From a candidate division WOR-3 bacterium (GTDB lineage: Bacteria > Hydrothermota > Tepidihabitantia > B3-TA06): DNA of 64,000 nt. The DNA lies in contig JAFGSK010000029.1 in NCBI GenBank assembly GCA_016934635.1, forward strand, positions 895 to 64,894, in the 5' to 3' direction. The notes under the pieces were generated by a model that made no database searches, was not told where the DNA came from, and saw only the letters and a program-made list of their open reading frames with translations. How positions within the stretch are numbered: position 1 is the first letter of the stretch; every line of letters begins with the position of its first letter. The translations under genes were made by a program, and so were the position numbers. Shown here one piece after another: positions 28,305 to 42,975 of this stretch.

Positions 28305-29474
28305 TTAACTATACAGTATTTGTCTGTAGATAGCGGTAAGTCGTTCGGCGGTGGGCAGGGCAAGGAAGCGTTGCCTGGCTTCTTCTTGACCCTGGCTGGC
28401 CAAGTTGAGGGAGTTTTGTTCATTATTATAAAGATTTTTAATTGCTTGAGCCAGCTCGTTAGCATCGTTCGGTTTTACCAGAATCCCTGTCTTCTGATCC
28501 CGGATGATTTCTCTCTGTCCGCCTGCATCTGCACCGACCGCCACAAGTCCGGCCAACTGAGCCTCCACCAACACCATACCGAAGCCTTCGGCTACCGAGG
28601 GAAGAACCATCACGCCTGCATCAAAGAGCACTCCAGGCAGATGATGATGAGGCAGTCTGCCCGCAAAACTCACCCTGTTAGCTATTTCCTCCCTTGCTGC
28701 AAGTGATTCGAGGTTAATCCGCTCCGGCCCGTCCCCGACAAGGGTTAAATCGAGATAGAGTCCTTCTCTTGCCAGTATCCCTAAAGCCCTTAGTAACACG
28801 TCGAAGCGTTTCTGCCGGGTCAGGTTGCCTACGGCAACGACATGTCTTTTCAGATGCCTGCGCGCTGATGACAGAAACATTCCTGAGGCAGGCATGGGCA
28901 GGACGTAGCGTATTATTCTCTCACCCGACAGATGCTCCAATTGTACTCCCAAATAATCCGATACCGGCAGGGCAAGGGTTACCTTGCTGAGCGCCCAGTT
29001 GGCAAGCAGGCCTCCGAAGGGCAGCGCTTTAAGTAACCGGATGTCAGTGCCGTGAAGGCTCAAAAGGAATGGCAAGTTGCGAGCGCTAAGGGCAACACGG
29101 CCAGCTATCCCTGCAGGGAGTAACCAGTGGGCATGGATTAGATCTATCTCATCGGCTTGAATAACCCTTTTAGTCATTTTGGTGAACGCCCGAATGAACC
29201 TGTTAAGTAAGGTGTACCCTTTCATGCCCCGTCTCAACGTATCGAGCATCCTGCCTTCGTAGGCTATTGTTTCCTCGGGTTCAGCAGAATACCGGAATCG
29301 GTAGATCGTGATATTTTTTCGTTCCTCACACTCAGACAAACCTGGGGCATGTGGACAGATTACGAAGGGCCTGAATTCGTCTTCCGGGAGTGCGCGAACC
29401 AACTCCTGGATGAACGCCCCGGAGTGATCTCCTTTGAATCTGGGATAGTTGTGGGTAAGAAAGAGAACCCGCAT
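28305..29474 (-). CDS. Glycosyltransferase family 4 (GT-B fold)
   Basis: N-terminus MRVLFLTHNYP...GDHSGAFIQEL. C-terminus has the E(x7)E-type motif PSVAEGFGMVLVEAQLAG. Confidence 0.8.
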   Translation of the reverse strand: MRVLFLTHNYPRFKGDHSGAFIQELVRALPEDEFRPFVICPHAPGLSECEERKNITIYRFRYSAEPEETIAYEGRMLDTLRRGMKGYTLLNRFIRAFTKMTKRVIQADEIDLIHAHWLLPAGIAGRVALSARNLPFLLSLHGTDIRLLKALPFGGLLANWALSKVTLALPVSDYLGVQLEHLSGERIIRYVLPMPASGMFLSSARRHLKRHVVAVGNLTRQKRFDVLLRALGILAREGLYLDLTLVGDGPERINLESLAAREEIANRVSFAGRLPHHHLPGVLFDAGVMVLPSVAEGFGMVLVEAQLAGLVAVGADAGGQREIIRDQKTGILVKPNDANELAQAIKNLYNNEQNSLNLASQGQEEARQRFLALPTAERLTAIYRQILYS

Positions 29475-29478
29475 CCGC

Positions 29479-30441
29479 TCAAGGCAGTTTCCTGCGCAGG
29501 GTTTCTATCTCCGCCCTGAGCTGAGCTATCTGTTCGGCAACGAAGCCTGCTATGACCAGTAACAGCCCAACCAGAACCAGAAGGATTACGAGAAACAGAA
29601 GAGACCGCAGCCCGGTTTTGGCAAAGATCAGGAAACCGAGGTATACCAGTCCGACCACAACCCCGGAAAAGACGCTTGCCCCGCCCAGGGTTCCGAACAG
29701 AAGCATCGGTTTACGTGAATAACGCAAGAGGAAGGATACCGATATGAGATCAAGAACCCCGATAGGTATGCGCCAGATTCCGAACTTGGAACGGCCGTGG
29801 ATCCGAGGCTTGAGAGTAACGTCGACCTCGGAGGTCCTCCAGCCGTCCGAAGCGGCAAGAACGACCAGGTAACGATGCCAGTCCTTTCTCAGGGCCATAT
29901 CCTTGACCACCTCGCGCCGGAACGCCTTGATTGAATTGAGGTCTTTTACCTTTACCTTGAGTAATAATCTTGACAGAAGGTTGTAGATCCCGGACACGAA
30001 GCGCTTGGAGTATCGGCCCACCTTTCTTCCGGTGACAAGATCGGTTTTGTCGGCAAGTATGGGTTGGACTAATTTAGAGATGTCGGAGACAAGAAACTGA
30101 AGGTCTGCAGGGAAAAAGACGAAGACCTCACCTCGGGCATTTGAAAATCCGGTTTCGAGGGCCCTGGTAATACCGCGATTAACGCGATGCCTAGCAACCT
30201 TCAGGAAGGGGTGTTTTTTTGCCTGCTCGGCAGCCGCCTCGTAGGTACGGTCAATGCTTCCGTCGTCTACAAGCAGAACCTCAAAGCTGAAAGGCGCCTT
30301 TTTTGCGAACCCGACGAACTCGGCGACCAGTGGTTGGATGTTTTCTTCCTCGTTGCATGCAGGTACTATGATAGAAACCTGGGGCTTCTTGGCTATTGCT
30401 CTCTTCACGGTAAAGTCTACCTTAACGGTACTGAAAGTCAA
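29479..30441 (-). CDS. Glycosyltransferase family 2, polyprenol-phosphate glycosyltransferase-like with C-terminal TM helices
   Basis: VSIIVPACNEEENI, LLVDDGSIDRT and FPADLQ motifs, with two C-terminal TM helices. The start is uncertain (TTG 30441 or GTG 30408). Confidence 0.8.
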   Translation of the reverse strand: MTFSTVKVDFTVKRAIAKKPQVSIIVPACNEEENIQPLVAEFVGFAKKAPFSFEVLLVDDGSIDRTYEAAAEQAKKHPFLKVARHRVNRGITRALETGFSNARGEVFVFFPADLQFLVSDISKLVQPILADKTDLVTGRKVGRYSKRFVSGIYNLLSRLLLKVKVKDLNSIKAFRREVVKDMALRKDWHRYLVVLAASDGWRTSEVDVTLKPRIHGRSKFGIWRIPIGVLDLISVSFLLRYSRKPMLLFGTLGGASVFSGVVVGLVYLGFLIFAKTGLRSLLFLVILLVLVGLLLVIAGFVAEQIAQLRAEIETLRRKLP

Positions 30442-30747: not shown

Positions 30748-30775
30748 TTGACAAGCAAGATAAAAACTATATACT
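30748..30775 (+). promoter_or_regulatory. Promoter for paralog A with ~130-nt purine-rich leader
   Basis: TTGACA-N16-TATACT. Confidence 0.6.
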
Positions 30776-30914
30776 TAGCTGGCGAAAAAGAGTTGACGAA
30801 CTGCGAAAGGAGGTGAAACGCAGATAAAGGTTCACCAGAGGTGAAGATAAAAAAAAAGAAGTAAGACACCAAGACAAGATAAAAACCAAATCTTCCTTAA
30901 GGAGGAGAAACACA

Positions 30915-33900
30915 ATGAGTAAAAAGCTTATTGCGCTGGCTCTCATATTTGGGGTAGCCGGCGTCGTCTTTGCCGGCGGTACTGTCGGTTGGAACCAACT
31001 TCCGACCCCAGAAACCGGCTGGTATTGGGGCTACGATAACACAGAGCCCGGGCCTCCGTTTGAGAACCCGATCATTGACGCTCTGCCTGCCGCTAACGAG
31101 GCTGATATTCACGCTAATCCCAACGCATACATGCCTGATCGCTACAACGACCGCCCCTTCCAATATCAGACCTTCCCGGATTCCTTCTGGTTCTACGGTC
31201 ACTGGTACGACTATGACAACTACCTCTATATCTATCCTGACGGCCTTATTAGCTGGGATGACACTAAACCGGACGGAGCGAACCACCCGCCGACTGCTAT
31301 CCCGCCCTTCCCAGTTCAAGATGATCCAAACGAGCTGATTGCCCCGCTGTGGCAGGATAACGACCCCACCGCAGTAACCACCCCACCGGAAACAAACAGG
31401 ATATATTACATGCACCAGATAGGCCCGGGGATCAACCGCTTCATCGTACAATGGTATAATGTAGTGAGCTTTACCACCAACTCCAACACCTACAACTATG
31501 GCCTCATCCTCGACCTGGGCGGTCAGGATTACATGCGTTCAGATGAGTGCGACAATACCTTCTACTTCCGCTACGGCCACTTCTGCTACATAAGCGCTAC
31601 CGGCTGGACTCTCGACAACGGAGCCGCTGGTATTGAGGATGTCTCCGGTAATCATGGTTTTACCTATCACATGCCGAGTGATCCCCACATAGCAAACGGC
31701 CGTGTATGCCGCTTTGGCTACAAGCTGGTGCGCCAGCACGACGTTATACCTTGGGCCTTCATCTCTCCGGGCCGGATGGTGCTTCGTTACACCGATATCG
31801 AGCCCTGGGGAGTAGTTGGCAACTTCGGTAAAGAGTCGGAGACCTTCAACATCGTTCTGGATATCTACGACGATGATGATACCCGGGTATACCATCAGGT
31901 TGTTGCCGGCTATCATCTGGATTCCGACGACTACGATATCGTCAACTTCCCGTGCTGGATGCCTGAAGAGCTCTATGAAGAGGGTATCCACTACTATCGC
32001 AAGGAGTTGATCACTTCCCTGGACGGTGATCTTTGTAAGAACAATGACACCCTTGTGGAGATGAGCTACGTCCACTGCGACGACAGCCTCGGCTACGAGT
32101 GGGACTTCAACAACATATATACGGGTTACTGGTCCCCCAACTACTCTTTCGGCTTTTACGTTTTCGGAACCTCCTACCGCATGGACGGCGGCGTCCTTGT
32201 CAAGGGCGGACGCATCTTCATGGCCGATACCGACCCGATGAAGTCGGGCTACTATGGATACATTCTTACCGACCCGCCCAGACTGGACATTTGGGAATCC
32301 AACAACGGTTGCGGAATGCCTCGTCAGGACGGCAACGTCGGTTACGGCGTTTCACAAACCTATCAGGACGGCTGGAACTACGCAGGAATCCCCGGCAAGG
32401 TCGGTCCTCGTAAGACCGATCCTCCGGGCGGCCCTGGCCAGGATAAGATCATCGAGGATCTTGGCATCTACGCAGTCGCCAACATAAACGAAGGAAACAT
32501 CTGGGGCGCTGCAACCAGTTCCGGCGTAGGTACAGGTTCCGCCGGCACAGGCGGCTGGGTAAGCTGTCTGGCTCTTCTGGTAGCTCCTGAACCGACAACC
32601 TGCTACGGCGGAAGCCCCCTTCACCGCGGCGCTATCTGGCAAGTGAACCACAATCACGGCTGGTACAGCTGGTACCCCGGCTATTATAACGAAACCATGA
32701 TCGTCGAACTTACGGTTCACCTCGGGTTCAACCCCGAAAGCCCGCGGCCTCAGCCTCCCTGCTACTACGACTATCCTCATGACCTGACCATCTACCGCGT
32801 CAACAAGCCTGACCGCGAGTACGTGGAAGACGGCGACGAGACCACCGTCGAGCTGGCCCTTGGCAACATAGGTCGGCAGACGGAGCCTGACGAGACGTTC
32901 TTCCCGGTCAAGTTGTTCGTTGTTGACTACGACTCCCCGAGCAAGGATACCGTACATGCCGAAACTACCCAAATGACTCACATCGGCTGGTTCGGTGACG
33001 ACACCGATGGACCAGACACCACACTGGTACCGATGCTGCCCTGGACGCCTGAAGGCATCTGCAAGGATTGGGTAGTCGAGAACGGCGGTTGGGAGAATAA
33101 CCCGATCCCGAAAGAGTTAGTAGGCGTGCATTACGAGATGATAGGTCTGGTTCGCCTGGGCGAGGTAGGACCTGATCTTTCAGACCACTGCCCGTACAAC
33201 GACACCTGCCGTCTGTACATCACCTGCTTGCTCTCCCACGACGTGGGCGTGATCGACCTTACCAACGAAGAAGGCCACGAATGGGGTAACTCCTGGACAG
33301 ACCCCTATCCAGTCGGAACCGAGTTCACCTGTGTAGCCACGGTCGAGAACTTCGGCTACAATGAGGAACACGACGTTATCGTTGACCTCGAGGTCATGGA
33401 CGCCACTAAGGATCCCGACTCACTGGTATGGCACAACTCCCAGGAGATCACTTTCCTTGACTGGCGCGGCAACGACCTTGATAACCCCTACGTCGCAGAA
33501 GTTACCTTCCCGGTCTGGGAAACCCCGAGCACGGACTGGTTCAGGCTAGAGTGCCGTACAGAGCTGGTCGGTGACGACTGTCCGGATAACGACGAAGAGA
33601 CACGGCACATCAACATCGCCGTTGCCGAGACTCCGGTCGGTCTGCCCTTCGCGCTGGAAGCCATCAAGCCGAATCCGTTCGTTGGTTCGACCAAGGTTTC
33701 CTTCGCGTTGCCGCACACCACTAACGTCAGCCTGAAGGTCTACGACATCTCCGGTAAGCTGGTCGCCACCCTGGTGAACGGCACCGAGAAGCCGGGCCGT
33801 CACAGCGTTACGTGGAACGGCACAGACGATGCTGGTCGTACGGTAGCCCAGGGAATCTACCTGGTCCGTATGGAATCAGAGAGCTTCAGCGCTACCAAGA

Positions 33901-33917
33901 AGGTGGTGCTTTACTAG
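30915..33917 (+). CDS. T9SS cargo: NIDO-like N-terminal domain, CARDB-like repeats, CTD (paralog A)
   Basis: Has a signal peptide. FWFYGHWY...YIYPDGLISWDD...IAPLWQDNDP resembles the NIDO pattern. HDVG..L...V.NFG resembles CARDB segments. CTD reads KPNPFVGSTKVSFALP...GIYLVRM...KKVVLY. Confidence 0.75.
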   Translation: MSKKLIALALIFGVAGVVFAGGTVGWNQLPTPETGWYWGYDNTEPGPPFENPIIDALPAANEADIHANPNAYMPDRYNDRPFQYQTFPDSFWFYGHWYDYDNYLYIYPDGLISWDDTKPDGANHPPTAIPPFPVQDDPNELIAPLWQDNDPTAVTTPPETNRIYYMHQIGPGINRFIVQWYNVVSFTTNSNTYNYGLILDLGGQDYMRSDECDNTFYFRYGHFCYISATGWTLDNGAAGIEDVSGNHGFTYHMPSDPHIANGRVCRFGYKLVRQHDVIPWAFISPGRMVLRYTDIEPWGVVGNFGKESETFNIVLDIYDDDDTRVYHQVVAGYHLDSDDYDIVNFPCWMPEELYEEGIHYYRKELITSLDGDLCKNNDTLVEMSYVHCDDSLGYEWDFNNIYTGYWSPNYSFGFYVFGTSYRMDGGVLVKGGRIFMADTDPMKSGYYGYILTDPPRLDIWESNNGCGMPRQDGNVGYGVSQTYQDGWNYAGIPGKVGPRKTDPPGGPGQDKIIEDLGIYAVANINEGNIWGAATSSGVGTGSAGTGGWVSCLALLVAPEPTTCYGGSPLHRGAIWQVNHNHGWYSWYPGYYNETMIVELTVHLGFNPESPRPQPPCYYDYPHDLTIYRVNKPDREYVEDGDETTVELALGNIGRQTEPDETFFPVKLFVVDYDSPSKDTVHAETTQMTHIGWFGDDTDGPDTTLVPMLPWTPEGICKDWVVENGGWENNPIPKELVGVHYEMIGLVRLGEVGPDLSDHCPYNDTCRLYITCLLSHDVGVIDLTNEEGHEWGNSWTDPYPVGTEFTCVATVENFGYNEEHDVIVDLEVMDATKDPDSLVWHNSQEITFLDWRGNDLDNPYVAEVTFPVWETPSTDWFRLECRTELVGDDCPDNDEETRHINIAVAETPVGLPFALEAIKPNPFVGSTKVSFALPHTTNVSLKVYDISGKLVATLVNGTEKPGRHSVTWNGTDDAGRTVAQGIYLVRMESESFSATKKVVLY

Positions 33918-33941
33918 GCACTAAAGAAGAAGGACAGTAAA

Positions 33942-33974
33942 GCTTTGAGAGGGGCCCCAGGCTCCTCTCAAAGC
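33942..33974 (+). other. Hairpin between paralogs A and B (terminator homolog lacking a U-tract)
   Basis: GCTTTGAGAGG...CCTCTCAAAGC. The core GAGAGGGGCC..GGCTCCTCTC is homologous to the terminator stem at 37125. Confidence 0.4.
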
Positions 33975-34006
33975 GCCGGAAAATTGCTTTAAGGAGGAAA
34001 AAACCA

Positions 34007-37000
34007 ATGAGTAAAAAGATTTACGTGCTGGTTTTATTGTTGGGATTCTCGGCGGCATTTGCCGCCTCGCCCATAGCGGTACCGATGACGCCGAACAACG
34101 AGTGGAACCAGCTCGCGCAAGGCGGTCAGACGGGCTGGGTCCAAGGCTCCTCCGCCGAAACAGGCTGGTACTGGGCCTATGACGCTTACAGTCATGCACC
34201 TTTCAACTCGCCCTACATCGGTGACCCCATGCAAGTCTTCCCCAGGTTAGACAACTCGACTGCCCAGGGAATCAATAAGCTGGAGCCTTACAATGACCGT
34301 CCTTATCAGTATGAGTTGATTGACTCCTTCTGGTACTTCAACCACTGGTACAAGCCAGGCGATCATATATATATATCTCCTGACGGCTGGCTCAGTTTTG
34401 ACGAAAACTCGTCAGACGGAGCAAACCATCCCCCCGCGTCAGTACCTCCAATGCCCAACACCATCGAACCCAACGAGATAATAGCCGTCCTGTGGCAGGA
34501 CATGGACCCCACCCTAGACCAGGGTGATGTCGATGAAAACCGTGTCTACTACACGTTCAGAGGACACGGTCCTCCATTTACCGCTGAAGAAAGCCTGCGT
34601 GCGCCTACGCTTACGGTGCAGTGGAACAAGCTGAAGTCCGTTGCCCAACCTACGCACACCTACGACTTTGCTTGCGTTCTAGATTTCGGTGGACAGGCAA
34701 GGCTTGAGGATGCCGGAAACTGCGGCATCGTCTTCAGCTACATGTTCATCGAGATGTCCTACGACAACGAAGGCGCCCCGTTTGGCTGGGATCAAGAAGC
34801 CGGCGTTATCGGCATTGAGGATCAATCCGGTGACTACGGTCTCACCTACGAAGGCACCATAGGTACAGGCGTATCTCCCAATCCTCAGATGGAGTCAGGC
34901 TTCCCCATCCGTTGGGGTTATAAGAAACTGTACAGACATGACGTTGCCGGAATACTCATCCTTTCCCCTGGAAAGTTGGTCCTGCGTCATACCCCGATCG
35001 AGCCGCAACTGATAGTCGGAAATGTCGGTCTCGAGGTTGAACACTTCAACGCGGTCTACGAGGTCTGGGAAGAAGACGGCTCAGAGCCCGTTTACCAGAA
35101 CGTCCTTGGTTCCTATGATCTCTTCCCAGGCGTCTGGGATACGTTAATCGCCCCTTGTTGGACCCCTGGTGAGTTCGGAACCGTCTACACCAACTGGCTG
35201 TGGGTAGATCTAGACGGAGACCTCTGCACCTACAACGACACCTTCGAGATGATAAGCATCGTCGGGTGCGACGATACCTTCCGTTACGACTGGAACTTTG
35301 CCTACGTAGACGAGGCATGGGGTAACGCCAGTCAGGAGTACTACCTCGGTATGTTCTACCCGGTAGACAACGGCGTCCTCATCACAGGTGCACGTGTATT
35401 CATCGACGCATTCCCGGATCCCTTATACTTCTACGATCCCCCGGTTTATCCGGCGCTGGCCGTATACGAGGCAAATAACGGCTGCGGCGGAATCGTCGAT
35501 CCGCCTTCCAAATCTCCCGTACCGGGCTGCAAGGCTACAACCGAAACATACCAGATCGGCTGGAACAACGCCCACTTCGGCTACCGCAACCCTAAAACCG
35601 GTCAGAACACCGGAGTCTTCGTTCACTCCGCTCCTGGAGGCAACGTCTGGCTGGGAATGACCGCATCTACCGCCGGCTTTACAGGTTCCATGCGTTCGGT
35701 AGCTCTGAGGCAGCAACTTGATCCGCATCCGTGCTACAACAACAGCTGGAACACGCAGACACGATCTGCGTCCTGGAGCGCTACAGGTCAATCCTGGTGG
35801 ATGACCGGCTCAAGTTTCTTGTACGAACACGATCAGTGCCCAGATCCCAGTGTGGTCTCATACTACACCGACATCTTTAACTATCCCCTCGAGCTCTTCG
35901 TGCATCTGGGATTCGGCCCCTATCCAATGTCGCCAAAACCGCAGCATCCATGCTACCACGACGAACCCCACGACATCATGGCCTACCGGTTCGAGAAGCC
36001 TTTCTTAGACTGGATCGAGGACGGCGAGCCTCTCACCTGTGAGGTCGGAATCACCAACCTCGGACGCCAGACTGAGCCTGACCAGGGATTCTTCCCTGTC
36101 AAGCTGTATATAGTTGAGGTTGAAACCGGAGACACATTCTGGAGCGAAACCACCCTGATCAACAAACTGGGCTGGGGCAACGATGACACCGACGATCCGG
36201 ATACAATCCTCGTTCCGTTCACCCCGTTTGCGCCTGAAGGCGCCTGCGTCGACTGGCAGATCGTCTACGGCGAACCTGGCGGCTCTCCTCCTCCGTTCGA
36301 GGACGTAGGAGTGGATTATGAGTTCATCGGCCTGGTTCGTCTTGGCGAGGTCGGTCCGGATCTTTCCGACCACTGCCCGTACAACGACACCACCCGTATC
36401 TGGGTAACCTGTCTTCTGTCCCACGACGTGGGCGTGGTCGACCTCCAGAATGAGGAAGGCCATGCATGGGGCAACTCCTGGACCGACCCATATGCAGTCG
36501 GAACAGAGTTCACCTGTGTTGCTACCGTCGAGAACTTCGGCTTCCAAGAAGAGCACGATTTCGTAGTGGACCTCGAGATCTACGACGCGGACAAAACCCC
36601 GGATTCACTCGTCTGGCACGCCACAGAACCTGTTTCATTCCTTGACTGGCGCGGCAATACCCTAGATAACCCATACCTCATCGACGTCACATACCCGACC
36701 TGGTCGACCCCAAGCACAGACTGGTTCAGGATTGAATGCCGCACCGAGCTTGTCGGCGACCTCTGCCCGGTTAACGACGAGCTTACCAGGCACATCAACA
36801 TCGCCGTTGCCGAGGTACCGCCCGGTCTGCCGTTCGCGCTCGAGGCAATCAAGCCCAACCCGTTTATGGGTTCCGCCAGGATCTCATTTGCATTGCCTCA
36901 CAGCACTTCGGTAAGCCTGAAGGTCTACGACATCTCCGGTAAGCTGGTTGCAACCCTGGTAAACGGCGCCGAGAAACCCGGTCGTCACACCGTCACCTGG

Positions 37001-37102
37001 AACGGCACCGACGATGCAGGCCGTTCGGTCGCACAGGGTATCTACCTGGTCCGAATGGATGCAGAGAACTTCAGCGCCACCAAGAAGGTGGTACTCTACT
37101 AA
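34007..37102 (+). CDS. T9SS cargo: NIDO-like N-terminal domain, CARDB-like repeats, CTD (paralog B)
   Basis: Collinear with paralog A. FWYFNHWY...YISPDGWLSFDE...IAVLWQDMDP. The C-terminal ~300 aa are nearly identical to paralog A. Confidence 0.75.
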   Translation: MSKKIYVLVLLLGFSAAFAASPIAVPMTPNNEWNQLAQGGQTGWVQGSSAETGWYWAYDAYSHAPFNSPYIGDPMQVFPRLDNSTAQGINKLEPYNDRPYQYELIDSFWYFNHWYKPGDHIYISPDGWLSFDENSSDGANHPPASVPPMPNTIEPNEIIAVLWQDMDPTLDQGDVDENRVYYTFRGHGPPFTAEESLRAPTLTVQWNKLKSVAQPTHTYDFACVLDFGGQARLEDAGNCGIVFSYMFIEMSYDNEGAPFGWDQEAGVIGIEDQSGDYGLTYEGTIGTGVSPNPQMESGFPIRWGYKKLYRHDVAGILILSPGKLVLRHTPIEPQLIVGNVGLEVEHFNAVYEVWEEDGSEPVYQNVLGSYDLFPGVWDTLIAPCWTPGEFGTVYTNWLWVDLDGDLCTYNDTFEMISIVGCDDTFRYDWNFAYVDEAWGNASQEYYLGMFYPVDNGVLITGARVFIDAFPDPLYFYDPPVYPALAVYEANNGCGGIVDPPSKSPVPGCKATTETYQIGWNNAHFGYRNPKTGQNTGVFVHSAPGGNVWLGMTASTAGFTGSMRSVALRQQLDPHPCYNNSWNTQTRSASWSATGQSWWMTGSSFLYEHDQCPDPSVVSYYTDIFNYPLELFVHLGFGPYPMSPKPQHPCYHDEPHDIMAYRFEKPFLDWIEDGEPLTCEVGITNLGRQTEPDQGFFPVKLYIVEVETGDTFWSETTLINKLGWGNDDTDDPDTILVPFTPFAPEGACVDWQIVYGEPGGSPPPFEDVGVDYEFIGLVRLGEVGPDLSDHCPYNDTTRIWVTCLLSHDVGVVDLQNEEGHAWGNSWTDPYAVGTEFTCVATVENFGFQEEHDFVVDLEIYDADKTPDSLVWHATEPVSFLDWRGNTLDNPYLIDVTYPTWSTPSTDWFRIECRTELVGDLCPVNDELTRHINIAVAEVPPGLPFALEAIKPNPFMGSARISFALPHSTSVSLKVYDISGKLVATLVNGAEKPGRHTVTWNGTDDAGRSVAQGIYLVRMDAENFSATKKVVLY

Positions 37103-37124
37103 AAAGTTTAAAGATTTTGACCAT

Positions 37125-37155
37125 GAGGGGAGCCGCAAGGCTCCTCTCTTTTTTT
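37125..37155 (+). terminator. Intrinsic terminator after paralog B
   Basis: GAGGGGAGCC-GCAA-GGCTCCTCTC followed by TTTTTTT. Confidence 0.85.
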
Positions 37156-37408
37156 AAAATAGATCCGTATCACACTCCCCTTCAATCTTCCAATCTTGCA
37201 ATCATCGAATCGAAACACCTCAGCCGTTCAGGCGCCTAGGGCGGATTTCGATCCTGCGGGTGTTTGTTACTCAAGCCTGCAAGTCGCTTATCCTTTTGTG
37301 TAATATTTACTGGTGTGTAATTTTTCGCTCATTGTAACGTCCCGACTGATAATAACTTAATATGTCGAATCGTGGCATAAAAATTGCTTATAACTGAGGT
37401 AGAGGTTA

Positions 37409-38035
37409 ATGAAGATGAGTTGTTTTCTTTTTTCGAGATGGATTAAAGGAGCGCTTGTGGTGTTGAGTCTTATCCTGCCCCCCTTGGCGGCAGGAAGTAT
37501 CGACGCGTCGATCATTGACCGCGCATCTTCTAATGACGCAGATAGCCGGGCAATCAATCTTGATGCGAGGGTGGTTTTTGAGCTTGCTTCAGGCTGTATC
37601 CTATCGTGGACAGCAGTCGATGGATCATCTTCTCCAGAAGGACGGTGGGAAGAGGATACGAATCAGGACTCATGCATCGAGGACAGCTTGCCCGCCGAGG
37701 AGATAGGGGATGAAAACATCAATGTTGAAGCCCTTGGTATAGACCAAGCCGATGGAAAATCATTCTGTATCCATGCCCCTAGTGCATGGCCGCTTAACGG
37801 CAGATGTGAGGTAAGGTTTGTGGTTCCGAAGCCGTGCTGGGTACGTATCGGGGTTTTTGACCTTAACGGCGATGATATATGTACGCTGGCTGATGACTTC
37901 TTCAAGAAGGGCGAGTATCTGTGTTACTGGGACACATCCTCTGGATCGGATCCGGACGTCTCAGAGGGTGTTTATCTTATCAGCATGCAGGGTTATGGTT
38001 TAAACGAGGTGCGGAAGGTTGTACTCATCAAGTGA
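37409..38035 (+). CDS. Small acidic Cys-rich secreted protein with T9SS CTD-like end
   Basis: Has a signal peptide and an acidic ~100-aa segment. C-terminus reads VRIGVFDLNGDDICTL...EGVYLISM...KVVLIK. Confidence 0.6.
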   Translation: MKMSCFLFSRWIKGALVVLSLILPPLAAGSIDASIIDRASSNDADSRAINLDARVVFELASGCILSWTAVDGSSSPEGRWEEDTNQDSCIEDSLPAEEIGDENINVEALGIDQADGKSFCIHAPSAWPLNGRCEVRFVVPKPCWVRIGVFDLNGDDICTLADDFFKKGEYLCYWDTSSGSDPDVSEGVYLISMQGYGLNEVRKVVLIK

Positions 38036-38094
38036 AAACTCAATCGAGGTGGGTAACAGTTTCTTTGAACCCGAAACGCATGCTTGAATGAAAC

Positions 38095-38122
38095 TTGACA
38101 AGCCTTATAACGAGGCTAAAAT
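38095..38122 (+). promoter_or_regulatory. Promoter for the TolB-like/C25 peptidase pair
   Basis: TTGACA-N16-TAAAAT. Confidence 0.6.
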
Positions 38123-38156
38123 TAGAATTAAATCCTTAAATCAGTAAGGAGGTTCA

Positions 38157-39278
38157 GTGAAGAGATTAGCCCTTTCGATCGTGGGGACTCTTTTAATATT
38201 TGGTGCCTTGGCGGCAGAGACGAGTTTACAGACGCTAGAATCCAGGATTGCAGAATCACCCGATGATGCCCGGGTCCTTTACGAATTGACGAGAAGATAC
38301 TGCAAGTTGGATTCTCAAAGCAAAGCAATAGAAAGCTGGCGGCATCTGGCTGAATTGGATCCAGACTTGGCCTCAGATATATACCTTATTACCAATGTTG
38401 CCGCCTATGCAGGTGTTGAGCCGTTCTTCCCACAACTTATATCCGACTCGATGATTCAAGCACCTCGACTCAGCCCTGACGGTAAATGGATCGTATTCTC
38501 TGCCGTTATTGGCGGGCGGATGCAAATCGCCGAGATCGATTTCTTCGGAAGTCATTATACGAAGTTAACCTCAGGGGATTCCTACAACCATTCTGCCAGT
38601 TTCGTCGATTCAGAGGATGAAATAATATATGGTCGCTTTACCGAGGGGAAGGTAGAGGAGATCGTTCATCTCGATCTGAAGACTGGAGAGAACAACGTTA
38701 TCTTGAGTGATTTCATGTCACAAATCGAAACTCCGGATAGACCTTCGTCCAAGCTGCCCTTGCTTTTCAGTTATCTATCACCTGATACAAGAACAACGGA
38801 AATTGGATTATACGACACCAGAACTGGAAAATTCACCGAACTTACCCAGAACAGGTACAGTGACAGAAACGCACGTTACTCCCAAAAAGGCAAGTTGATA
38901 GTTTATGCGGTTGATAACCGCATGAATGTTGATATCTTCATAATGAATCGCAAAGGGAAGGTTATCGAACAGATAACCGATTCTCGATTCAATGAGTCTC
39001 AGCCTGATTTTGGAGACAACGATAACAAAATTGCCTTCATATCCAACAAGTTTAATGATAAATACGATGTATTCATCTATGACCGTCGAACCAAGGATGT
39101 AATCCCGGTCACCTGCACCGAATCGATAGATACGCATCCTGATCTATCTAACGATGGAAATTGGCTGGTTTTCGATTCAAACCGTGAAGGCGGTCCAATT
39201 AAGGGATATTTCATTTCACTAAACCAGCCCATCTCAGTGGAAAAATTGTTGGAGGAGATAGATAAAAAAACCGAATAG
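38157..39278 (+). CDS. TPR plus TolB-like (PD40) beta-propeller periplasmic protein
   Basis: Has a signal peptide. Repeated SPDGKWIVFSA / GKLIVYA / NKIAFIS / NDGNWLVFDS PD40-type motifs. GTG start with AAGGAGG SD. Confidence 0.7.
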   Translation: MKRLALSIVGTLLIFGALAAETSLQTLESRIAESPDDARVLYELTRRYCKLDSQSKAIESWRHLAELDPDLASDIYLITNVAAYAGVEPFFPQLISDSMIQAPRLSPDGKWIVFSAVIGGRMQIAEIDFFGSHYTKLTSGDSYNHSASFVDSEDEIIYGRFTEGKVEEIVHLDLKTGENNVILSDFMSQIETPDRPSSKLPLLFSYLSPDTRTTEIGLYDTRTGKFTELTQNRYSDRNARYSQKGKLIVYAVDNRMNVDIFIMNRKGKVIEQITDSRFNESQPDFGDNDNKIAFISNKFNDKYDVFIYDRRTKDVIPVTCTESIDTHPDLSNDGNWLVFDSNREGGPIKGYFISLNQPISVEKLLEEIDKKTE

Positions 39279-39294
39279 TTAACGGGAGGTATGA

Positions 39295-42200
39295 ATGAAA
39301 ACGTACGTCATGTACTGGACACTGTTTGTCTTAGCGGTGGTGCATTTGCCTTCCTCAAGCCTGAAGGCAAAGAGTAATCAGAGGGGGGAATCAATAAGCT
39401 ACGAGTTGCAACTCGGCGAGATAGAATTTACCCACAGATCCGGTTATGTTTTGGTATCTTTACCTGATGCAGCATACGACGCCTCACCTGGTTATCCGCT
39501 GATTCCCTTTATTATCACGCGTCACATTCTACCCCAAGGAACCAGATGTAAAGATGTATATCTCGAGATCAAGGAACAAGAAATCCTTCAGGTTAAAGCC
39601 CCATTATACCCGGCTCAGATACCTCGTCCTCTAAGTCAAAACTCGGTTGAGTTTGCACAGCCCATTAGGGAGGTATACTCCTCTACTTCACCGACAACAG
39701 ACTTTTCCGCACAAGCTTACAATGAGGGCTTTCTTGGTGGTCAGCGTATCGTTACAGTAGCTATCCGACCCATACGTTATACACCCGCCTCAGGTATCCT
39801 TGAAGTCGTAAAAAGTATGATCGTTACAGTGGAGTATGAGGCTTGTGATGACGGTCACACGAATCAGCCGTCCACTGTCAATCAATCGAAAAATCTAAGC
39901 CGCAGGATTCAATACCTTACAGATGATTCCCCGACGTTTTCGACCTTACCGATGTCAACTACTATACCACCTGAGGTTGGATATCGCCACGTTATAGTCA
40001 CGCCAGCCGCTCTCAAACCGGCATTCTCCGAGCTTGCAGCCTGGAACACGGAACGAGGGGTTCGCGATACGGTCGTAACCTTGGAAAGCATTACTTCGGT
40101 CTTCCCTGGGCAGGACATTGCCGAACAGATACGAAACTTCGTTATATTCGCATATACCAATCTGGGATTGGAGTATTTGCTTTTGGGGGGAGACGAGGAA
40201 CTGGTGCCCACTCGGGATTGCTTCACTATGGTTTCAGGCGGGGGAGATCTGGATACCATTCCGACCGACATGTATTTCGGCTGTCTCGACGGGAATTGGG
40301 ACGGGAACGGAAACGGAGTGTTCGGAGAGATGGGAGACAACGTTGATCTCTACGCGGAGGTTGCCGTCGGACGCGCACCTGTCAACGACGCGACAGAGGC
40401 GACGAGGTTCACAGATAAGGTTAAGACCTACACCCAGACCCCTGCCGCAGGATACGCGAACAAACTCCTTCTTCCATCTGAGATACTTTGGGACGACCCC
40501 TATTATCCTGGAGATGCTACAAACAACAGGATAGCCGAACTAGCACCTGCGGGCGCCGAGTTTCAAAGACTGTACGAAACTCAAGGAACCCTTTCCAAGT
40601 TCGGTTTCCGTGATTCCCTGAACATCGGAGTAGGCCTGGCTCACCATATGGCCCACGGCAACGTAAGCGCCATCTCCTGCGCGGATGCAGGTTTCTGGGG
40701 CTGGGAAGCCAGCCTTTTGACAAATGCCGACAGATTGACCGTTTTTAATTCAATTGCATGTCTTGTCGGGGCATTCGATTACTCGGAGTGTCTTGTCGAG
40801 GAGTTCATGAACTCCCCGGACGGCGGTACGGTAGCCTGGGTAGGAAATTCACGTTACGGCTGGGGTACCCCTCCTACGCAGGGTCCATCCGAAGACCTCG
40901 ATATAAGCCTCTTCGAGGCTATATGGAGCGGTTATAATCCTGAGATAGGACCTGCACTTGTACAGGCAAAGGATGAAAACGCCGCTGGGATGAGCGGTTC
41001 TACCTACGGACGCTGGTGCATTTACGAGCTCAATCTTCACGGAGATCCGGCCATGCCGGTTCATTCCAGAGAGCCGTCAAATTTCTTCGTCACGTATCCT
41101 GAGATACTGGACGGGCCTCAAACCGTTACGATTCGAGTCACTTCCGAGACCGGATACGACGTGGCAGGGATGCTTGTCTGTTTCAGGCAGTCTCCCTCGG
41201 TTTATTCCTGGGACTACACAGACGATCTAGGATATGCCAGCCTCAACATCAACCCTCAACCCGGGTACCTGGACCTTACCGTTACAGGAGCAAATCACTT
41301 CGCCTATACGGATAAAATATCGGTAGGGTTTGCGGAACCTGAGATATCCCTGGACGAAGATACCGTATGGGTCGATGCAGGTGTTGATCCGCTTTCGGCC
41401 TTCTTCGGTGTCTCGAATACCGGCACCGGCCCTCTCTGGGTATCGAAGGCGCGCTCCCTTGCAACCTGGATAGAGGACATTACTCCTGAATCCTTCTGGG
41501 TTCTACCCGATTCCACTATCGACGTTGGCTTCTCGGTTGACACCTCGGGTCTTGCCGACGGCATCTGGACTGGAAAAATAATGGTTTCATCGAACGACCC
41601 TTCCGCACGAACTATATACCAGTACGTGAAGCTTATTAAGGGGGACTTCCCGAACATAGCATTCACGGTTGATACTTTAAAGTTCGATATACCGGCAGGC
41701 GATTCATCAACGAAGTTACTACAAGTGACCAACCTGGGTCGTGCCGACCTTATAGTCTCAAACGTTACGGATAACGTACTATGGATTACAGAGATCAATC
41801 CGACGAACTTTACTGTTCCTTATGGGAATTCGTCTTCGACCGAATGGATTGCGGTGACTGTAGACACCTTAAAGGTTGGTGAAGGTGAATATTACGGAAT
41901 TATGACCTTTTCAACCAACGATCCGGATGAGAAAATTTCCAGACTGCCCGTACTCCTGGATATGGGCGAACCGGACATTGCCCCCTCCCCGGATACACTG
42001 GAATTTTTCTACTCATACGTTGAACTGGATGAAAACAAGACCGAAGACACGTTGAAAGTAATAAATGCAGGCAAAAGACTGCTCTCTCTGACCCGAATTG
42101 ATGATACTAAACCGTGGATCGAGATTCAAGCGGAAGTACCTCAAGACATCGAACCTTCAGATACTTTTTTGGTTCCGGTAAAGGTCTTCGAGCAAGGTCT

Positions 42201-42903
42201 CAAACAAGGGGTTTATTACGGTCACATCGTTATCTACTCGAACGATCCGGATTCTCCAATCCTGAAACAGCCCTGCAAATTCACCATTGAGGAGATTCCT
42301 GCGACAATTCTCTGCTCACCTGATACTGCCGAGATGGACAGGCAGACCATGAGAGGTATCTTCTGGATCCACAACCTGGGTATGAGGTCTTTGACCGTTA
42401 CCGGTATCACAAGCCCGACACCTTGGATAGGAAGGTTTTATCCGAATAAGGGAAGCGTCCAGGGTGCTGACAGTCTCAGGATTCAAATAATCGGGGATGC
42501 ATCGAAACTCACCGGAGGGGTTCAGATAGGAACCGCTGTAATCGAATCCAACGATTCGCATAAGCCAGAATACTCAGAACCTGTAAGGATAGAAACGCCT
42601 CCAGGCATAGCAGAGGCTTATCCTCGTTTCTTCGAGTTTTCAAGAATATCCCCCAATCCCGTAGCTGTCGAATGCCTGATACGCTTTGCCGTGCCTTTCG
42701 AGACACCAGTGGAGATAGCGGTCTACGACATTTCAGGCAAGAAGGTCAAAACCTTGAACTATGGCAGCACGAATCCTGGATATTACAGTATCCCATGGAA
42801 AGGTGATGACGAATTCGGGCGCGAGCTTCCCCAAGGCGTCTATATCCTCAAGATGAGTAGCCCGGAATACTCAGCGATTCAAAAGATAGTTCTCGTAAGG
42901 TAA
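39295..42903 (+). CDS. Peptidase C25 (gingipain/PorU-type cysteine peptidase) with four Ig-like modules and T9SS CTD
   Basis: N-terminus is propeptide-like (GYPLIPF). The catalytic region has LLLGGDEELVP, the His context HMAHGN and, ~35 aa later, the Cys context NSIACLVG. Four ~115-aa repeats follow (e.g. DTLKFDIPAGDSSTKLLQVTNLGRADLIVS). CTD reads ISPNPVAVECLIRFAVP...GVYILKM...KIVLVR. Confidence 0.8.
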   Translation: MKTYVMYWTLFVLAVVHLPSSSLKAKSNQRGESISYELQLGEIEFTHRSGYVLVSLPDAAYDASPGYPLIPFIITRHILPQGTRCKDVYLEIKEQEILQVKAPLYPAQIPRPLSQNSVEFAQPIREVYSSTSPTTDFSAQAYNEGFLGGQRIVTVAIRPIRYTPASGILEVVKSMIVTVEYEACDDGHTNQPSTVNQSKNLSRRIQYLTDDSPTFSTLPMSTTIPPEVGYRHVIVTPAALKPAFSELAAWNTERGVRDTVVTLESITSVFPGQDIAEQIRNFVIFAYTNLGLEYLLLGGDEELVPTRDCFTMVSGGGDLDTIPTDMYFGCLDGNWDGNGNGVFGEMGDNVDLYAEVAVGRAPVNDATEATRFTDKVKTYTQTPAAGYANKLLLPSEILWDDPYYPGDATNNRIAELAPAGAEFQRLYETQGTLSKFGFRDSLNIGVGLAHHMAHGNVSAISCADAGFWGWEASLLTNADRLTVFNSIACLVGAFDYSECLVEEFMNSPDGGTVAWVGNSRYGWGTPPTQGPSEDLDISLFEAIWSGYNPEIGPALVQAKDENAAGMSGSTYGRWCIYELNLHGDPAMPVHSREPSNFFVTYPEILDGPQTVTIRVTSETGYDVAGMLVCFRQSPSVYSWDYTDDLGYASLNINPQPGYLDLTVTGANHFAYTDKISVGFAEPEISLDEDTVWVDAGVDPLSAFFGVSNTGTGPLWVSKARSLATWIEDITPESFWVLPDSTIDVGFSVDTSGLADGIWTGKIMVSSNDPSARTIYQYVKLIKGDFPNIAFTVDTLKFDIPAGDSSTKLLQVTNLGRADLIVSNVTDNVLWITEINPTNFTVPYGNSSSTEWIAVTVDTLKVGEGEYYGIMTFSTNDPDEKISRLPVLLDMGEPDIAPSPDTLEFFYSYVELDENKTEDTLKVINAGKRLLSLTRIDDTKPWIEIQAEVPQDIEPSDTFLVPVKVFEQGLKQGVYYGHIVIYSNDPDSPILKQPCKFTIEEIPATILCSPDTAEMDRQTMRGIFWIHNLGMRSLTVTGITSPTPWIGRFYPNKGSVQGADSLRIQIIGDASKLTGGVQIGTAVIESNDSHKPEYSEPVRIETPPGIAEAYPRFFEFSRISPNPVAVECLIRFAVPFETPVEIAVYDISGKKVKTLNYGSTNPGYYSIPWKGDDEFGRELPQGVYILKMSSPEYSAIQKIVLVR

Positions 42904-42943
42904 CCCCTGGACTCAAGAATTCCATAACTCTTAGAAAAAAATT

Positions 42944-42975
42944 AAAGCAAGCCTTCGGGTTTGCTTTTCTACTTT
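42944..42975 (+). terminator. Intrinsic terminator after the C25 peptidase
   Basis: AAAGCAAGCC-TTCG-GGTTTGCTTT followed by TCTACTTT. Confidence 0.6.

Follow-up and report, generated by a model that had tools for sequence, protein, structure and literature searches.

What do five consecutive plus-strand genes (P1–P5) in the genome of an uncultivated sediment bacterium of the WOR-3 lineage encode, and do they form a unit of their own? They lie in a window of 64,000 nt, the whole stretch of DNA analysed here. A prediction made from the sequence alone had described them as a surface-protein island comprising adhesins with a nidogen-like (NIDO) domain and a processing protease. On balance, and with moderate confidence in the explanation as a whole, we favour the view that these genes make up the plus-strand half of a cell-envelope locus, conserved within and specific to one lineage (WOR-3/Caldifarciminota, Stahlbacteria, TA06). 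P1 and P2 are most likely binding or coat proteins displayed by a T9SS, a function suggested by their sequences.

Organization of the locus

All five ORFs were found at the coordinates originally predicted (Table 1), and an RBS of the AGGAGG type precedes each of them. Both signals proposed to delimit the genes, a promoter-like site at 30748 and a hairpin at 42944, are also present; a second promoter-like site (38095) and a strong terminator downstream of P2 had been overlooked. The latter hairpin (10-bp stem with 7 GC pairs, followed by U7; -22.9 kcal/mol, z -3.7) is much stronger than that at 42944, and the P2–P3 gap measures 306 nt compared with 16 nt between P4 and P5. A single promoter-to-terminator unit is contradicted by the strong terminator after P2 and by the second promoter-like site before P4. 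P1 and P2 would instead constitute one transcription unit ended by the strong terminator, and the closely spaced P4 and P5 a second one. The promoter-like sites are pattern matches only, to a consensus that may not be that of this lineage, and as a class they show no enrichment (17 observed against 12.5 expected). The only organism-specific RNA fragment across the 64 kb, one 151-nt contig, maps within P1.

The predicted boundaries (30748–42975) leave out a conserved, divergently oriented glycosylation block (24524–30441) that belongs to the locus and is found beside the P1 family in about 10 genomes. It encodes GT2 and GT4 glycosyltransferases, an LPG_synthase_TM-like protein and a 913-aa YfhO-like protein, the last of which is, judging by its sequence, a probable GT-C type glycosyltransferase. 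Because of its adjacency, we suspect that the block glycosylates P1/P2-type proteins or their anchoring glycolipid. The syntenic block ends on its far side with a 258-aa ORF that has no match in Pfam or NCBIfam; tblastn recovers it, likewise positioned, from 8 distinct genomes (L001/L006, L002/L003, L004, L007, L010, L013 and L014). The locus is not a mobile island: GC content is even across the region, the flanks consist of housekeeping genes (tig, clpX, ffh and similar), and synteny, upstream minus-strand genes included, is conserved across a phylum-level lineage. As predicted, the genes are co-localised rather than scattered in related genomes, and the paralog pair recurs in a second genome.

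Table 1. Features of the locus and its surroundings (positions in the window)
Feature	Position	Strand	Remarks
PorV/PorQ-family outer-membrane protein	18401-20188		99.1 bits, cut-off 90; 10 kb away
258-aa ORF	23656-24432	+	conserved; far edge of syntenic block
YfhO-like/PTPS_related polytopic membrane protein	24524-27265	-	913 aa; Pfam YfhO 40.5 bits, PTPS_related
LPG_synthase_TM-like membrane protein	27225-28304	-	359 aa; PF03706 75.6 bits; syntenic
GT4 glycosyltransferase	28305-29474	-	389 aa; Glycos_transf_1 119 bits, Glyco_transf_4; syntenic
GT2 glycosyltransferase	29479-30441	-	320 aa; Glycos_transf_2 89.9 bits; syntenic, divergent from P1
Promoter-like site	30748-30775	+	TTGACA-16 nt-TATACT; 11/12 matches; 140 nt 5' of P1
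P1	30915-33917	+	1000 aa
P1 signal peptide	aa 1-20	+	Sec type
P1 N-domain	30975-31730, aa 21-272	+	divergent NIDO-like domain
P1 module C1	31731-32072, aa 273-386	+	beta-sandwich repeat, CARDB-like motif order
P1 M domain	32073-32768, aa 387-618	+	conserved, Cys/His-bearing, no family assigned
P1 module C2	32769-33227, aa 619-771	+	by hhalign
P1 module C3	33228-33629, aa 772-905	+	carries sub-threshold CARDB match
P1 T9SS CTD	33630-33914	+	type A; TIGR04183 38.7 bits, FlgD_ig 50.2 bits
P2	34007-37102	+	1031 aa
Intrinsic-terminator hairpin	37125-37148, U7 to 37155	+	3' of P2
P3	37409-38035	+	208 aa
P3 CTD	37736-38032, aa 110-208	+	Cys-bearing
Second promoter-like site	38095-38122	+	TTGACA-16 nt-TAAAAT; 11/12 matches; 5' of P4
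P4	38157-39278	+	373 aa, GTG start; signal peptide, TPR-like helix pair, PD40/TolB-like beta-propeller
P5	39295-42903	+	1202 aa; prodomain-like N-terminus, catalytic domain, Ig-like repeats, CTD
P5 catalytic domain	39991-41058, aa 233-588
P5 CTD	aa 1118-1202
Weaker terminator-like hairpin	42944-42967	+	3' of P5; z -2.3, poor U-run

The P1/P2 family

P1 and P2 have the same architecture (signal peptide, N-domain, C1, M, C2, C3, CTD) and are 47% identical over their full length; by sequence they are old tandem paralogs, and an orthologous pair is kept in a second genome (L001). They represent a new protein family of about 30 sequence clusters, every one from WOR-3, Stahlbacteria or TA06 genomes, with a copy number of full-length genes that ranges from one to three or more. 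Their composition is acidic (144 D+E against 57 K+R).

The N-terminal motif on which the NIDO assignment was based occurs in both paralogs and falls on columns that are invariant across 21 family members, indicating that it is not due to chance. Nevertheless, Pfam NIDO (PF06119) misses P1 and P2 even with the E threshold relaxed to 10 and matches 1 of the 21 members (E 0.15), nor does the family profile directly resemble the NIDO domain of nidogen-1. With the family's N-domain profile, 1104 bacterial proteins are retrieved. Of 60 that were tested, 48 have a matched stretch that is Pfam NIDO, no other family being matched, and scores lie above the cut-off in, for example, P0050 (86 bits), P0058 (79 bits) and P0038 (104 bits). 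The family profile aligns with the bacterial NIDO-like profile (hhalign 99.9%, 190 columns), which in turn aligns with the Pfam-validated nidogen-1 domain (95%, E 2.8e-8, 106 columns). The assignment thus stands only through a two-step profile chain, strong but transitive, and not through a direct match; this indirectly supports the N-domain as very distantly related to the NIDO domain of animals. The AF2 model of the N-domain is confident (pLDDT 84.5), and no relative of it was found in the PDB; phage proteins share the fold. Between orthologs this is the fastest-evolving part of the protein (47%, compared with 72–76% in C1 and M). We know of no established molecular function for the NIDO domain, animals included. 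Considering its position, evolutionary rate and domain company, the N-domain of P1/P2 may act as a binding module, either adhesin or lectin-like.

C1, C2 and C3 repeat a single module, every pairwise hhalign comparison giving a probability of 98% and an E of about 1e-13; the predicted units with 'HDVG' and 'NFG' motifs correspond to its three copies. Their designation as CARDB-like is borne out only in part, since CARDB is the best match but stays below the cut-off (12.8 against 22.7 bits, P1 residues 800–830). Sub-threshold CARDB matches were detected in three of the 21 proteins and in six of the 21 C3 modules (E about 0.005 to 0.01 or weaker), and neither P1 nor P2 gave a direct match to Pfam CARDB above the cut-off. 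The M domain is unrelated to the other modules of P1 (hhalign) and has no match in Pfam, NCBIfam or PDB sequences. Its invariant residues across the 21 members include C466, C563, R571, E598 and H602, and its low-confidence model contains only beta-sandwich-like strands. These residues raise the possibility that the M domain could be catalytic, which would alter the picture of P1/P2.

That the genes encode secreted surface cargo with T9SS-type CTDs is supported for P1, P2 and P5 by TIGR04183 (38.7, 37.0 and 31.4 bits, respectively; cut-off 23 bits) and for P3 by alignment. The CTDs score higher with FlgD_ig than with Por_Secre_tail. Bacteroidota and the FCB group are the taxa for which a T9SS is established; to our knowledge, WOR-3 is not among them. 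A PorV/PorQ-family outer-membrane protein encoded 10 kb away (18401–20188; Table 1) is in keeping with this kind of export. P1 and P2 would be carried across the inner membrane by Sec and then, guided by the CTD, across the outer one by a T9SS-type route. They would be retained at the cell surface, the fast-evolving NIDO-like domain forming the distal tip and the beta-sandwich modules a stalk.

The downstream genes P3, P4 and P5

P3 is, as described originally, an acidic protein (33 D+E against 17 K+R) with seven of its 8 Cys located after the signal peptide. It matches none of the profiles searched, but BLASTP aligns its final 99 residues end to end with the CTD of P5 (E 8e-11). P3 appears to be a decayed short paralog in which only the signal peptide and CTD are left. 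The description of P4 as a TPR/PD40 propeller agrees with its PD40 repeats (58.6 bits) and TPR-like N-terminus. Its propeller is closest to that of TolB, yet the score (95.9 bits) is far under the TolB cut-off of 343, and the protein is presumed to be periplasmic.

P5 is a C25 peptidase, as proposed (Peptidase_C25, 209.5 bits). Its His454/Cys489 dyad is intact and conserved in an alignment to gingipain RgpB, the sole PDB sequence match, PorU (6ZA2) being unmatched; a weak, sub-threshold match to a gingipain-type propeptide was also observed (Propeptide_C25, E 0.023). PorU is the top NCBIfam match, but an identification as PorU was rejected at 78.5 bits against a cut-off of 420 (PorU2, 41 against 450). 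P5 would be a secreted gingipain-like cysteine protease and, since its adjacency is conserved, might mature, truncate by trimming, or shed the neighbouring surface proteins. The proposed partnership with a processing protease holds in six genomes, where a PD40 gene and then a C25 gene follow the P1 family. Two related loci (L001 and L014) are without C25, indicating that the coupling is not obligatory.

Alternative readings and known systems

Taken together, the cargo proteins, their CTDs, the C25 and PD40 proteins and the co-localisation of the original prediction were upheld, NIDO was upheld indirectly, CARDB stayed below its cut-off, and the island, the single unit, the boundaries and C25 as an obligatory partner were not upheld. 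It is possible, though doubtful, that P1 and P2 are not adhesins and form an S-layer-like structural lattice, glycosylated by the enzymes of the adjoining block, as TfsA/TfsB do. The tandem pair predates the split from L001, there is one conserved locus per genome beside the glycosylation block (10 genomes), and strong RBSs, a promoter-like site, a strong terminator, the single RNA contig within P1 and the acidic composition would all suit a coat. However, the number of full-length genes varies, and related NIDO-like domains belong to adhesins and proteases; none of the known S-layer proteins carries one. The coat and adhesin readings are mutually compatible. We regard it as unlikely that P1 and P2 are secreted enzymes, with a catalytic M domain and the NIDO-like domain as a substrate-binding accessory, on the model of M4/M36 and S8 peptidases with NIDO-like inserts. 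Such a role would account for the invariant Cys, His, Glu and Arg of the M domain, and NIDO-like domains are frequent in proteases (P0038, S8; P0048, P0055 and P0058, M4/M36). Against this, the M domain matches no enzyme family, its model gives nothing but beta-sandwich-like strands, and several of its conserved Cys are more simply explained as disulfide partners in an extracellular domain.

Less probable still is that P5 is a PorU-type sortase and P4 its PorZ- or PorE-like partner, the pair removing the CTDs of P1/P2 and linking these proteins to the surface. P5 has a C25 fold, a CTD of its own, a PorU-like size and PorU as top NCBIfam match, adjacency to cargo genes is conserved in six genomes, and P4 shares with PorE (TPR, WD40, CRD, OmpA_C-like; PMC12773672) the order of the first two domains. 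Yet the PorU and PorU2 scores, the PDB match to RgpB alone and the gingipain-type propeptide match of P5 speak against a sortase. P4 is without the CRD and OmpA_C domains of PorE and without a lipobox, reaches 13 bits with the PorE model (cut-off 600) and does not match the PorZ model, and L001 and L014 lack the P4–P5 pair but retain the cargo genes. Finally, five genes on one strand with promoter-like and hairpin signals at their ends might form a single co-transcribed adhesin-plus-protease island, possibly horizontally acquired. This is highly improbable, and as an island already largely refuted; against it stand the terminator at 37125–37155, the promoter-like site at 38095, the unequal gaps, the even GC content and housekeeping flanks, and the lineage-wide synteny.

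Our preferred reading, T9SS-displayed binding or coat proteins, can be compared with several known systems. The N-domain shows the same motif order as the NIDO domains of nidogen, alpha-tectorin, MUC4 and SUSD2 (F-x-F-Y-G, N-G-x-I/L-S-F, I-A-P-F/L-W-x-D-x-D, V-Y-Y, V-x-W, T-F-Q-x-x-L), and differs by ~65 additional residues at the N-terminus and by an insertion of ~17 residues (GGQ...C...). RemA and RemZ, from Flavobacterium johnsoniae, are gliding adhesins with type A CTDs (PDB 8GL6 chain D; PMC10994853, PMC12618676). Like P1/P2, RemA is large and secreted, with an N-terminal NIDO-like domain (residues 44–192 match the bacterial NIDO-like profile, E 1.6e-23) and a C-terminal type A T9SS CTD. 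The direct similarity between the P1 family profile and the RemA fragment is weak (69%, E 4e-5), and RemA carries a lectin domain in a gliding bacterium, whereas P1/P2 carry three CARDB-like modules and an M domain in a different phylum. Only the CTD of RemZ has been resolved, and the shared RemA-type domain is therefore without a structure.

In arrangement, P1 and P2 also resemble TfsA/TfsB, being adjacent paralogs that reach 1000 aa or more and end in T9SS CTDs. TfsA/TfsB are the S-layer pair that forms the surface lattice of Tannerella forsythia, which glycosylates both. The divergent block is reminiscent of CsbB/GtcA/YfhO, the three-component extracytoplasmic glycosylation system of Bacillus and Listeria. 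In both cases a GT2, a small or polytopic membrane protein and a YfhO-like GT-C are encoded together; the block differs in its diderm candidate-phylum host and its extra GT4, and is linked to P1/P2 by synteny only. P5, in turn, shares with RgpB of Porphyromonas gingivalis the C25 catalytic domain, the His/Cys dyad, Ig-like domains and a T9SS CTD; unlike RgpB, it carries four to five extra choice-of-anchor-D/HYDIN-type Ig repeats and always has a PD40 propeller gene before it.

Gene models and transcription units

The gene models of the locus were borne out, since all five plus-strand open reading frames of the original prediction were confirmed at the positions listed in the table, with an AGGAGG-type ribosome-binding site ahead of each. 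P1 and P2, paralogs of ~1000 aa that are 47% identical over their full length, are followed by a short paralog (P3), a protein with TPR and PD40 repeats (P4) and a C25 peptidase (P5). The promoter-like site before P1 and the hairpin after P5, which had been taken as the limits of a single transcription unit, are both present. Two further signals that had escaped the earlier description lie between them: an intrinsic terminator directly after P2 (10-bp stem with 7 GC pairs, then U7; -22.9 kcal/mol, z -3.7) and a second promoter-like site directly before P4 (11/12 matches). The hairpin after P5 is weaker (z -2.3). Considering these signals together with the intergenic gaps (89 nt for P1-P2, 306 nt for P2-P3, 121 nt for P3-P4 and 16 nt for P4-P5), the most likely transcription units are P1-P2, P3 and P4-P5, so that two or three units replace the single one proposed. 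Promoter-like sites as a class were not enriched in the scan (17 found against 12.5 expected); they are pattern matches, and the lineage's own promoter type may differ from the consensus scanned.

The source sample is a sediment metagenome. When the metatranscriptomes of the source study (n=3) were compared with the entire 64 kb, a single organism-specific contig was recovered, an exact match of 151 nt inside P1 (run X5). This one 151-nt fragment is consistent with P1 having the highest transcript abundance in the window.

Features of the locus and its surroundings, in window coordinates and P1 residues
Feature	Window position	Strand	P1 residues	Description
ORF	358-1794	-		478 aa
ORF	6804-9602	+		932 aa
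FG-GAP repeat protein	15419-18310	-		CTD-like tail
PorV/PorQ-family protein	18401-20188	-		595 aa
FG-GAP repeat protein	20185-23475	-		CTD-like tail
Glycosylation block and 258-aa ORF	23656-30441	divergent from P1		GT2, GT4, LPG_synthase_TM-like, YfhO-like GT-C
Promoter-like site	30748			before P1
P1	30915-33917	+		1000 aa
P1 putative signal peptide			1-20	
P1 N-domain			21-272	
P1 module C1			273-386	
P1 middle domain M	32073-32768		387-618	
P1 module C2			619-771	
P1 module C3			772-905	
P1 CTD			906-1000	
C2 region of lowest confidence	32718-33254		602-780	
Metatranscriptome contig	32788-32938			151 nt
P1 C3 + CTD DNA	33120-33752			
P2	34007-37102	+		1031 aa
P2 C3 + CTD DNA	36305-36937			
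Intrinsic terminator	37125-37148			after P2
P3	37409-38035	+		208 aa
Second promoter-like site	38095			before P4
P4	38157-39278	+		373 aa, GTG start
P5	39295-42903	+		1202 aa
Hairpin	42944			after P5
Signalling protein	51033-54815	+		1260 aa

Domain map of P1 and P2 and their indirect, remote relationship to NIDO

When P1 without its CTD was searched against 5.8 billion proteins, just 14 clusters were returned. All of them belong to candidate divisions WOR-3 and TA06, and their annotation reads either hypothetical or 'T9SS type A sorting domain-containing'; an exhaustive profile search gave ~15 further family clusters. Among the 25 loci found in a reference-genome scan, 24 belong to WOR-3 (Caldifarciminota in current NCBI naming), Candidatus Stahlbacteria and related uncultured-bacterium MAGs, and the remaining one, in an Ignavibacteria MAG, matches the CTD alone. 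Searches of PDB sequences with P1, the N-domain profile or the full family profile gave matches confined to the CTD.

The domain map of P1 was drawn from a 21-member alignment and profile-profile comparison of the parts. By this comparison a single module is present three times, as C1, C2 and C3 (98%, E ~1e-13), and N and M resemble no other part of the protein. The modules are repeated beta-sandwiches of ~100-130 aa, their strands predicted as beta, and they follow the CARDB motif order, first (H)D-V/L, then a central V-x-N-x-G and last an acidic D-x-C-P-x-N-D. CARDB (PF07705) is also the most frequent Pfam family, matching 3 of the 21 members (best E 0.005) and 6 of 21 isolated C3 modules (best E 0.0098); in P1 the match covers residues 800-830 (12.8 bits, E 0.14) and is the only one to P1 or P2, whole or as isolated segments, at E<=10. 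None of the 21 members or 21 C3 modules reached the threshold of 22.7 bits, and a word-index homolog search with the C3 profile yielded only 5 family fragments and no CARDB link. The CARDB-like units originally described thus stand as a repeated module with the CARDB order of motifs but fall short of the Pfam threshold, and 'CARDB-like beta-sandwich repeat' describes C1-C3 fairly.

A full-length AF2 model of P1, built from 11 sequences, was poor (pLDDT 49) and was set aside; its Foldseek matches, generic beta-sandwich chains at TM ~0.1, were discarded. AlphaFold confidence was lowest in the C2 region (pLDDT ~25), within which falls the family's best-conserved stretch, LVRLGEVGPDLSDHCPYNDT.

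The N-domain had been proposed to be NIDO-like, with a PF06119 profile search as the check. Neither P1 nor P2, whole or as isolated N-segments, gave a match to PF06119 (gathering threshold 25 bits) at E<=10, and only 1 of 21 family members was matched (E 0.15). The N-domain profile, run against 1.84 billion representatives, matched 1104 proteins at E<=1e-3, of which 118 reached E<=1e-10. Beyond the family, these are large secreted multi-domain proteins with one to eight domain copies each, and in many of the matched proteins Pfam NIDO exceeds its gathering score (104 bits in P0038, 86 in P0050, 79 in P0058, 63 in P0054, 40 in P0075 and 36 in P0061). When the profile-matched stretches of 60 proteins were excised, 48 were called Pfam NIDO at E<=0.01 and none was assigned to another family. 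The family profile and the profile of these bacterial stretches aligned at 99.9% over 190 columns, with an E-value that is inflated because the bacterial set was chosen using the family profile; the Pfam NIDO calls are independent evidence. The motif series are in register, DSFWFYG with PFxFxFYG, PDGxISF with SNGFLSF and PNExIAPLWQDxDP with PNxxIAPFWDDLxP, followed by VQW, TFQ and GIE.

On the bacterial copies, the alignment of the Pfam NIDO model is largely limited to model positions 1-54. As a second step, the bacterial profile was compared with the N-terminus of nidogen-1, which Pfam NIDO confirmed (207 bits, model positions 2-186); its NIDO domain was matched at 95% (E 2.8e-8, 106 columns), and the alignment extends through NTFQAVL. 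Compared directly, the WOR-3 family profile and nidogen-1 NIDO gave no match (0.2%). The NIDO-like assignment of the N-domain is therefore supported in substance, via two steps, but not directly: by Pfam's own criterion P1 and P2 lie outside the NIDO family, and their sequences point to a remote relationship, two steps removed. A literature search on bacterial NIDO domains returned nothing relevant.

An AlphaFold model of the N-domain, based on a 48-sequence alignment, is confident and all-beta (pLDDT 84.5, pTM 0.86). Foldseek found no relative of this model among 350,542 PDB chains (best E 0.12, TM <0.2), and the fold has no solved representative in the PDB. In the viral library BFVD the model gave a real match to uncharacterised tailed-phage proteins, which share the NIDO-like fold (A0A6J5P7T5 at E 1.6e-5 and TMq 0.59, C7F4D3 and F4YCL1); a Xanthomonas phage tail fibre is a weak match lower in the list. 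The lectin PllA, a weak sequence match (E 0.024), was dropped when the fold gave no corroboration.

Among PDB sequences, the bacterial NIDO-like profile matched one entry, 8GL6 chain D (RemA), over residues 44-192 (E 1.6e-23). The substrate trapped in 8GL6 belongs to the RemA family of gliding adhesins, and its CTD alone is resolved (PMC10994853); RemA itself is an adhesin that combines a lectin domain with a type A CTD (PMC12618676). The WOR-3 family matched the RemA fragment directly at a modest level (69%, E 4e-5), and the N-terminal fragment of RemA likewise escapes the Pfam NIDO model. Bacterial proteins with the domain also carry S8 and M4/M36 peptidases, Laminin_G, CUB, RTX repeats and T9SS CTDs. 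We conclude that the NIDO-like domain in bacteria is a module of secreted and surface proteins.

Secretion signals, partner proteins and conservation of the locus

As predicted, four of the five proteins end in T9SS CTDs. TIGR04183 (NCBIfam cut-off 23) scored 38.7 bits in P1, 37.0 in P2 and 31.4 in P5, and these three CTDs score better still on FlgD_ig. P3 gave no profile match. Its C-terminal 99 residues align over their full length with the P5 CTD (BLASTP E 8e-11) and with the 175-aa protein found at this position in a related genome (E 5e-28), and the CTD of P3 is therefore real. In other genomes, a short paralog made of two modules and a Cys-bearing CTD lies between the full-length genes and the PD40 gene; P3 and its counterpart at the related locus L001 are the positional equivalents, retaining only the putative signal peptide, an acidic unconserved stretch and the Cys-bearing CTD. 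Hydrophobic N-termini ending AFA/G, AFA/A and ALA/AE, read by eye, are signal-peptide-like.

The 595-aa protein encoded ~10 kb upstream of P1 matches the PorV/PorQ family in its N-terminal half (99.1 bits, cut-off 90) and has an OmpA-like peptidoglycan-binding domain at its C-terminus; in it a T9SS shuttle-type barrel is fused to a cell-wall anchor. It is flanked by the two FG-GAP repeat proteins and is the only direct sign of T9SS-type machinery within the 64-kb window; a literature search on T9SS in WOR-3 or Stahlbacteria gave nothing relevant. The 478-aa ORF near the window's start is probably another T9SS cargo, as it has a delta-60 repeat and a CTD below threshold (19.7 bits, cut-off 23). 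Elsewhere in the window, the 932-aa ORF has no Pfam or NCBIfam match, and the 1260-aa signalling protein combines a zinc ribbon, an adenylate/guanylate cyclase, an AAA_16 ATPase and a long TPR array.

The two partner proteins proved to be of the kinds proposed. In P4, PD40 repeats (58.6 bits, threshold 20.9) lie behind a TPR-like segment; identification as TolB (TIGR02800, 95.9 bits against a cut-off of 343), PorE (NF052230, 13.3 against 600) or PorZ, the last on its curated cut-off, was rejected. P5 matches Peptidase_C25 (PF01364) at 209.5 bits, and its His/Cys dyad is intact, with His454 and Cys489 aligning with the HG and C of gingipain RgpB (4IEF_B), the only PDB sequence relative of the protein. 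It also contains a weak C25-propeptide match, choice-of-anchor-D/HYDIN-type Ig repeats and the CTD.

The genes are co-localised rather than scattered, their neighbourhood being kept in related genomes, but the region is not the 'island' it had been called: synteny is retained in about 10 genomes, GC is even (0.44-0.57 across the locus and 0.44-0.57 in the whole window), the flanks are housekeeping (trigger factor, ClpX, SRP54, ROK kinase, tRNA) and no integrase was found. Nor do the proposed boundaries of 30748-42975 contain it, as it reaches upstream to the glycosylation block. The GT2, GT4, LPG_synthase_TM-like and YfhO-like genes and the 258-aa ORF, which itself has no family match in Pfam or NCBIfam, occur in the same order beside a P1-family gene in 10 genomes. 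Downstream, a PD40 gene and, just behind it, a C25 gene occur in 6 genomes; L001 has PD40 without C25 and then the same aldehyde dehydrogenase gene as in the window, and L014 has neither.

The copy number of the family varies strongly, with one to at least three full-length genes. Three full-length genes and one short tandem gene are found at L010 (10001-20807), and seven short CTD-bearing paralogs lie upstream of the full-length gene at L005 (1-9989). Compared with the L001 proteins, C1 and M are 76% and 72% identical between P1 and P0002, and 62% and 49% between P2 and P0007, against 33-43% between paralogs. Since C1 and M pair by orthologs, P1 and P2 were duplicated before their lineage parted from that of L001. 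For C3 and the CTD, the paralogs within the genome (78%/85%) are no less similar than the orthologs (72%/83% and 63%/79%). Together with 78% DNA identity between the C3 + CTD segments of P1 and P2, this suggests that the 3' part has been homogenised by gene conversion. Divergence is greatest in the N-domain, where even orthologs are 47% identical, a pattern that fits an exposed distal domain.

Proposed role of the locus

This is a core, lineage-specific envelope locus whose resemblances to NIDO and CARDB are remote and below family thresholds, and P1 and P2 represent a family, new and restricted to this lineage, of an already known kind, the multi-domain T9SS type A cargo. By the C-terminal anchor logic of type A cargo, established for Bacteroidota, P1 and P2 would be exported by Sec and then by a T9SS-type route, and displayed with the NIDO-like domain outermost. 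We infer a binding role for this domain from where it sits and how fast it changes, from its occurrence at the tip of RemA and in phage proteins, and from the substrate-binding modules that accompany it. P5 might then process or shed P1 and P2, and the upstream genes might glycosylate them or their anchor; the O-glycosylation motif D-(S/T)-(A/I/L/V/M/T) occurs five times in P1 and four times in P2, but these counts are uninformative, as they may be at background level and the motif, which is that of Bacteroidota, may not apply in this phylum.

A structural coat role for P1 and P2, like that of TfsA/TfsB, is compatible with these data, which do not separate it from the adhesin reading. The M domain holds many invariant residues (C388, G465-C466-G467, W487, C563-Y564, R571, E598, H602 and C616-Y617) and has no match in Pfam, NCBIfam or PDB sequences; that it is an enzyme is a less likely reading. 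For P5, a sortase function is likewise less likely: the PorU model (NF033707) scores 78.5 bits where 420 are required, its match being confined to the catalytic core and CTD, which makes the protein gingipain-like and not PorU, and PorU 6ZA2 is absent among its PDB sequence matches. The most far-reaching account, which we consider rather improbable, joins display and processing: the locus, with its glycosylation block and its P1-family, PD40 and C25 genes, would be the genetic unit of a lineage-defining, glycosylated, T9SS-exported coat of WOR-3, Stahlbacteria and TA06, with a fast-evolving NIDO-superfamily domain as its tip and the conserved protease as its maturation or shedding enzyme.

Few if any members of WOR-3, Stahlbacteria and TA06 have been cultured, and next to nothing is known of their cell surface; the locus is a good candidate for encoding their main displayed proteins. 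A domain map is now available for a family whose annotation went no further than 'T9SS type A sorting domain-containing' or 'hypothetical', and concrete constructs for structure determination and binding assays result. We know of no established function for the NIDO domain, in animals or bacteria, and of no solved structure; a confident model of a putative NIDO-superfamily domain that lacks an experimental structure is a useful by-product of the analysis. If the account of a glycosylated coat is true, NIDO of the animal extracellular matrix would be part of a large bacterial family of distal binding domains found in RemA, secreted proteases and phage proteins. Nothing known is overturned.

The locus can be set beside known systems. 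In gene content, the upstream block resembles the CsbB/YfhO-type extracytoplasmic glycosylation system, and the locus offers a testable coupling, outside Bacteroidota, of surface cargo, a gingipain-like protease and YfhO-type glycosylation. Another likeness is to RemA, a T9SS type A cargo with a NIDO-like domain at its tip: the N-domain of P1 and P2 is likewise placed, which would put the NIDO superfamily at the tip of T9SS cargo, RemA included.
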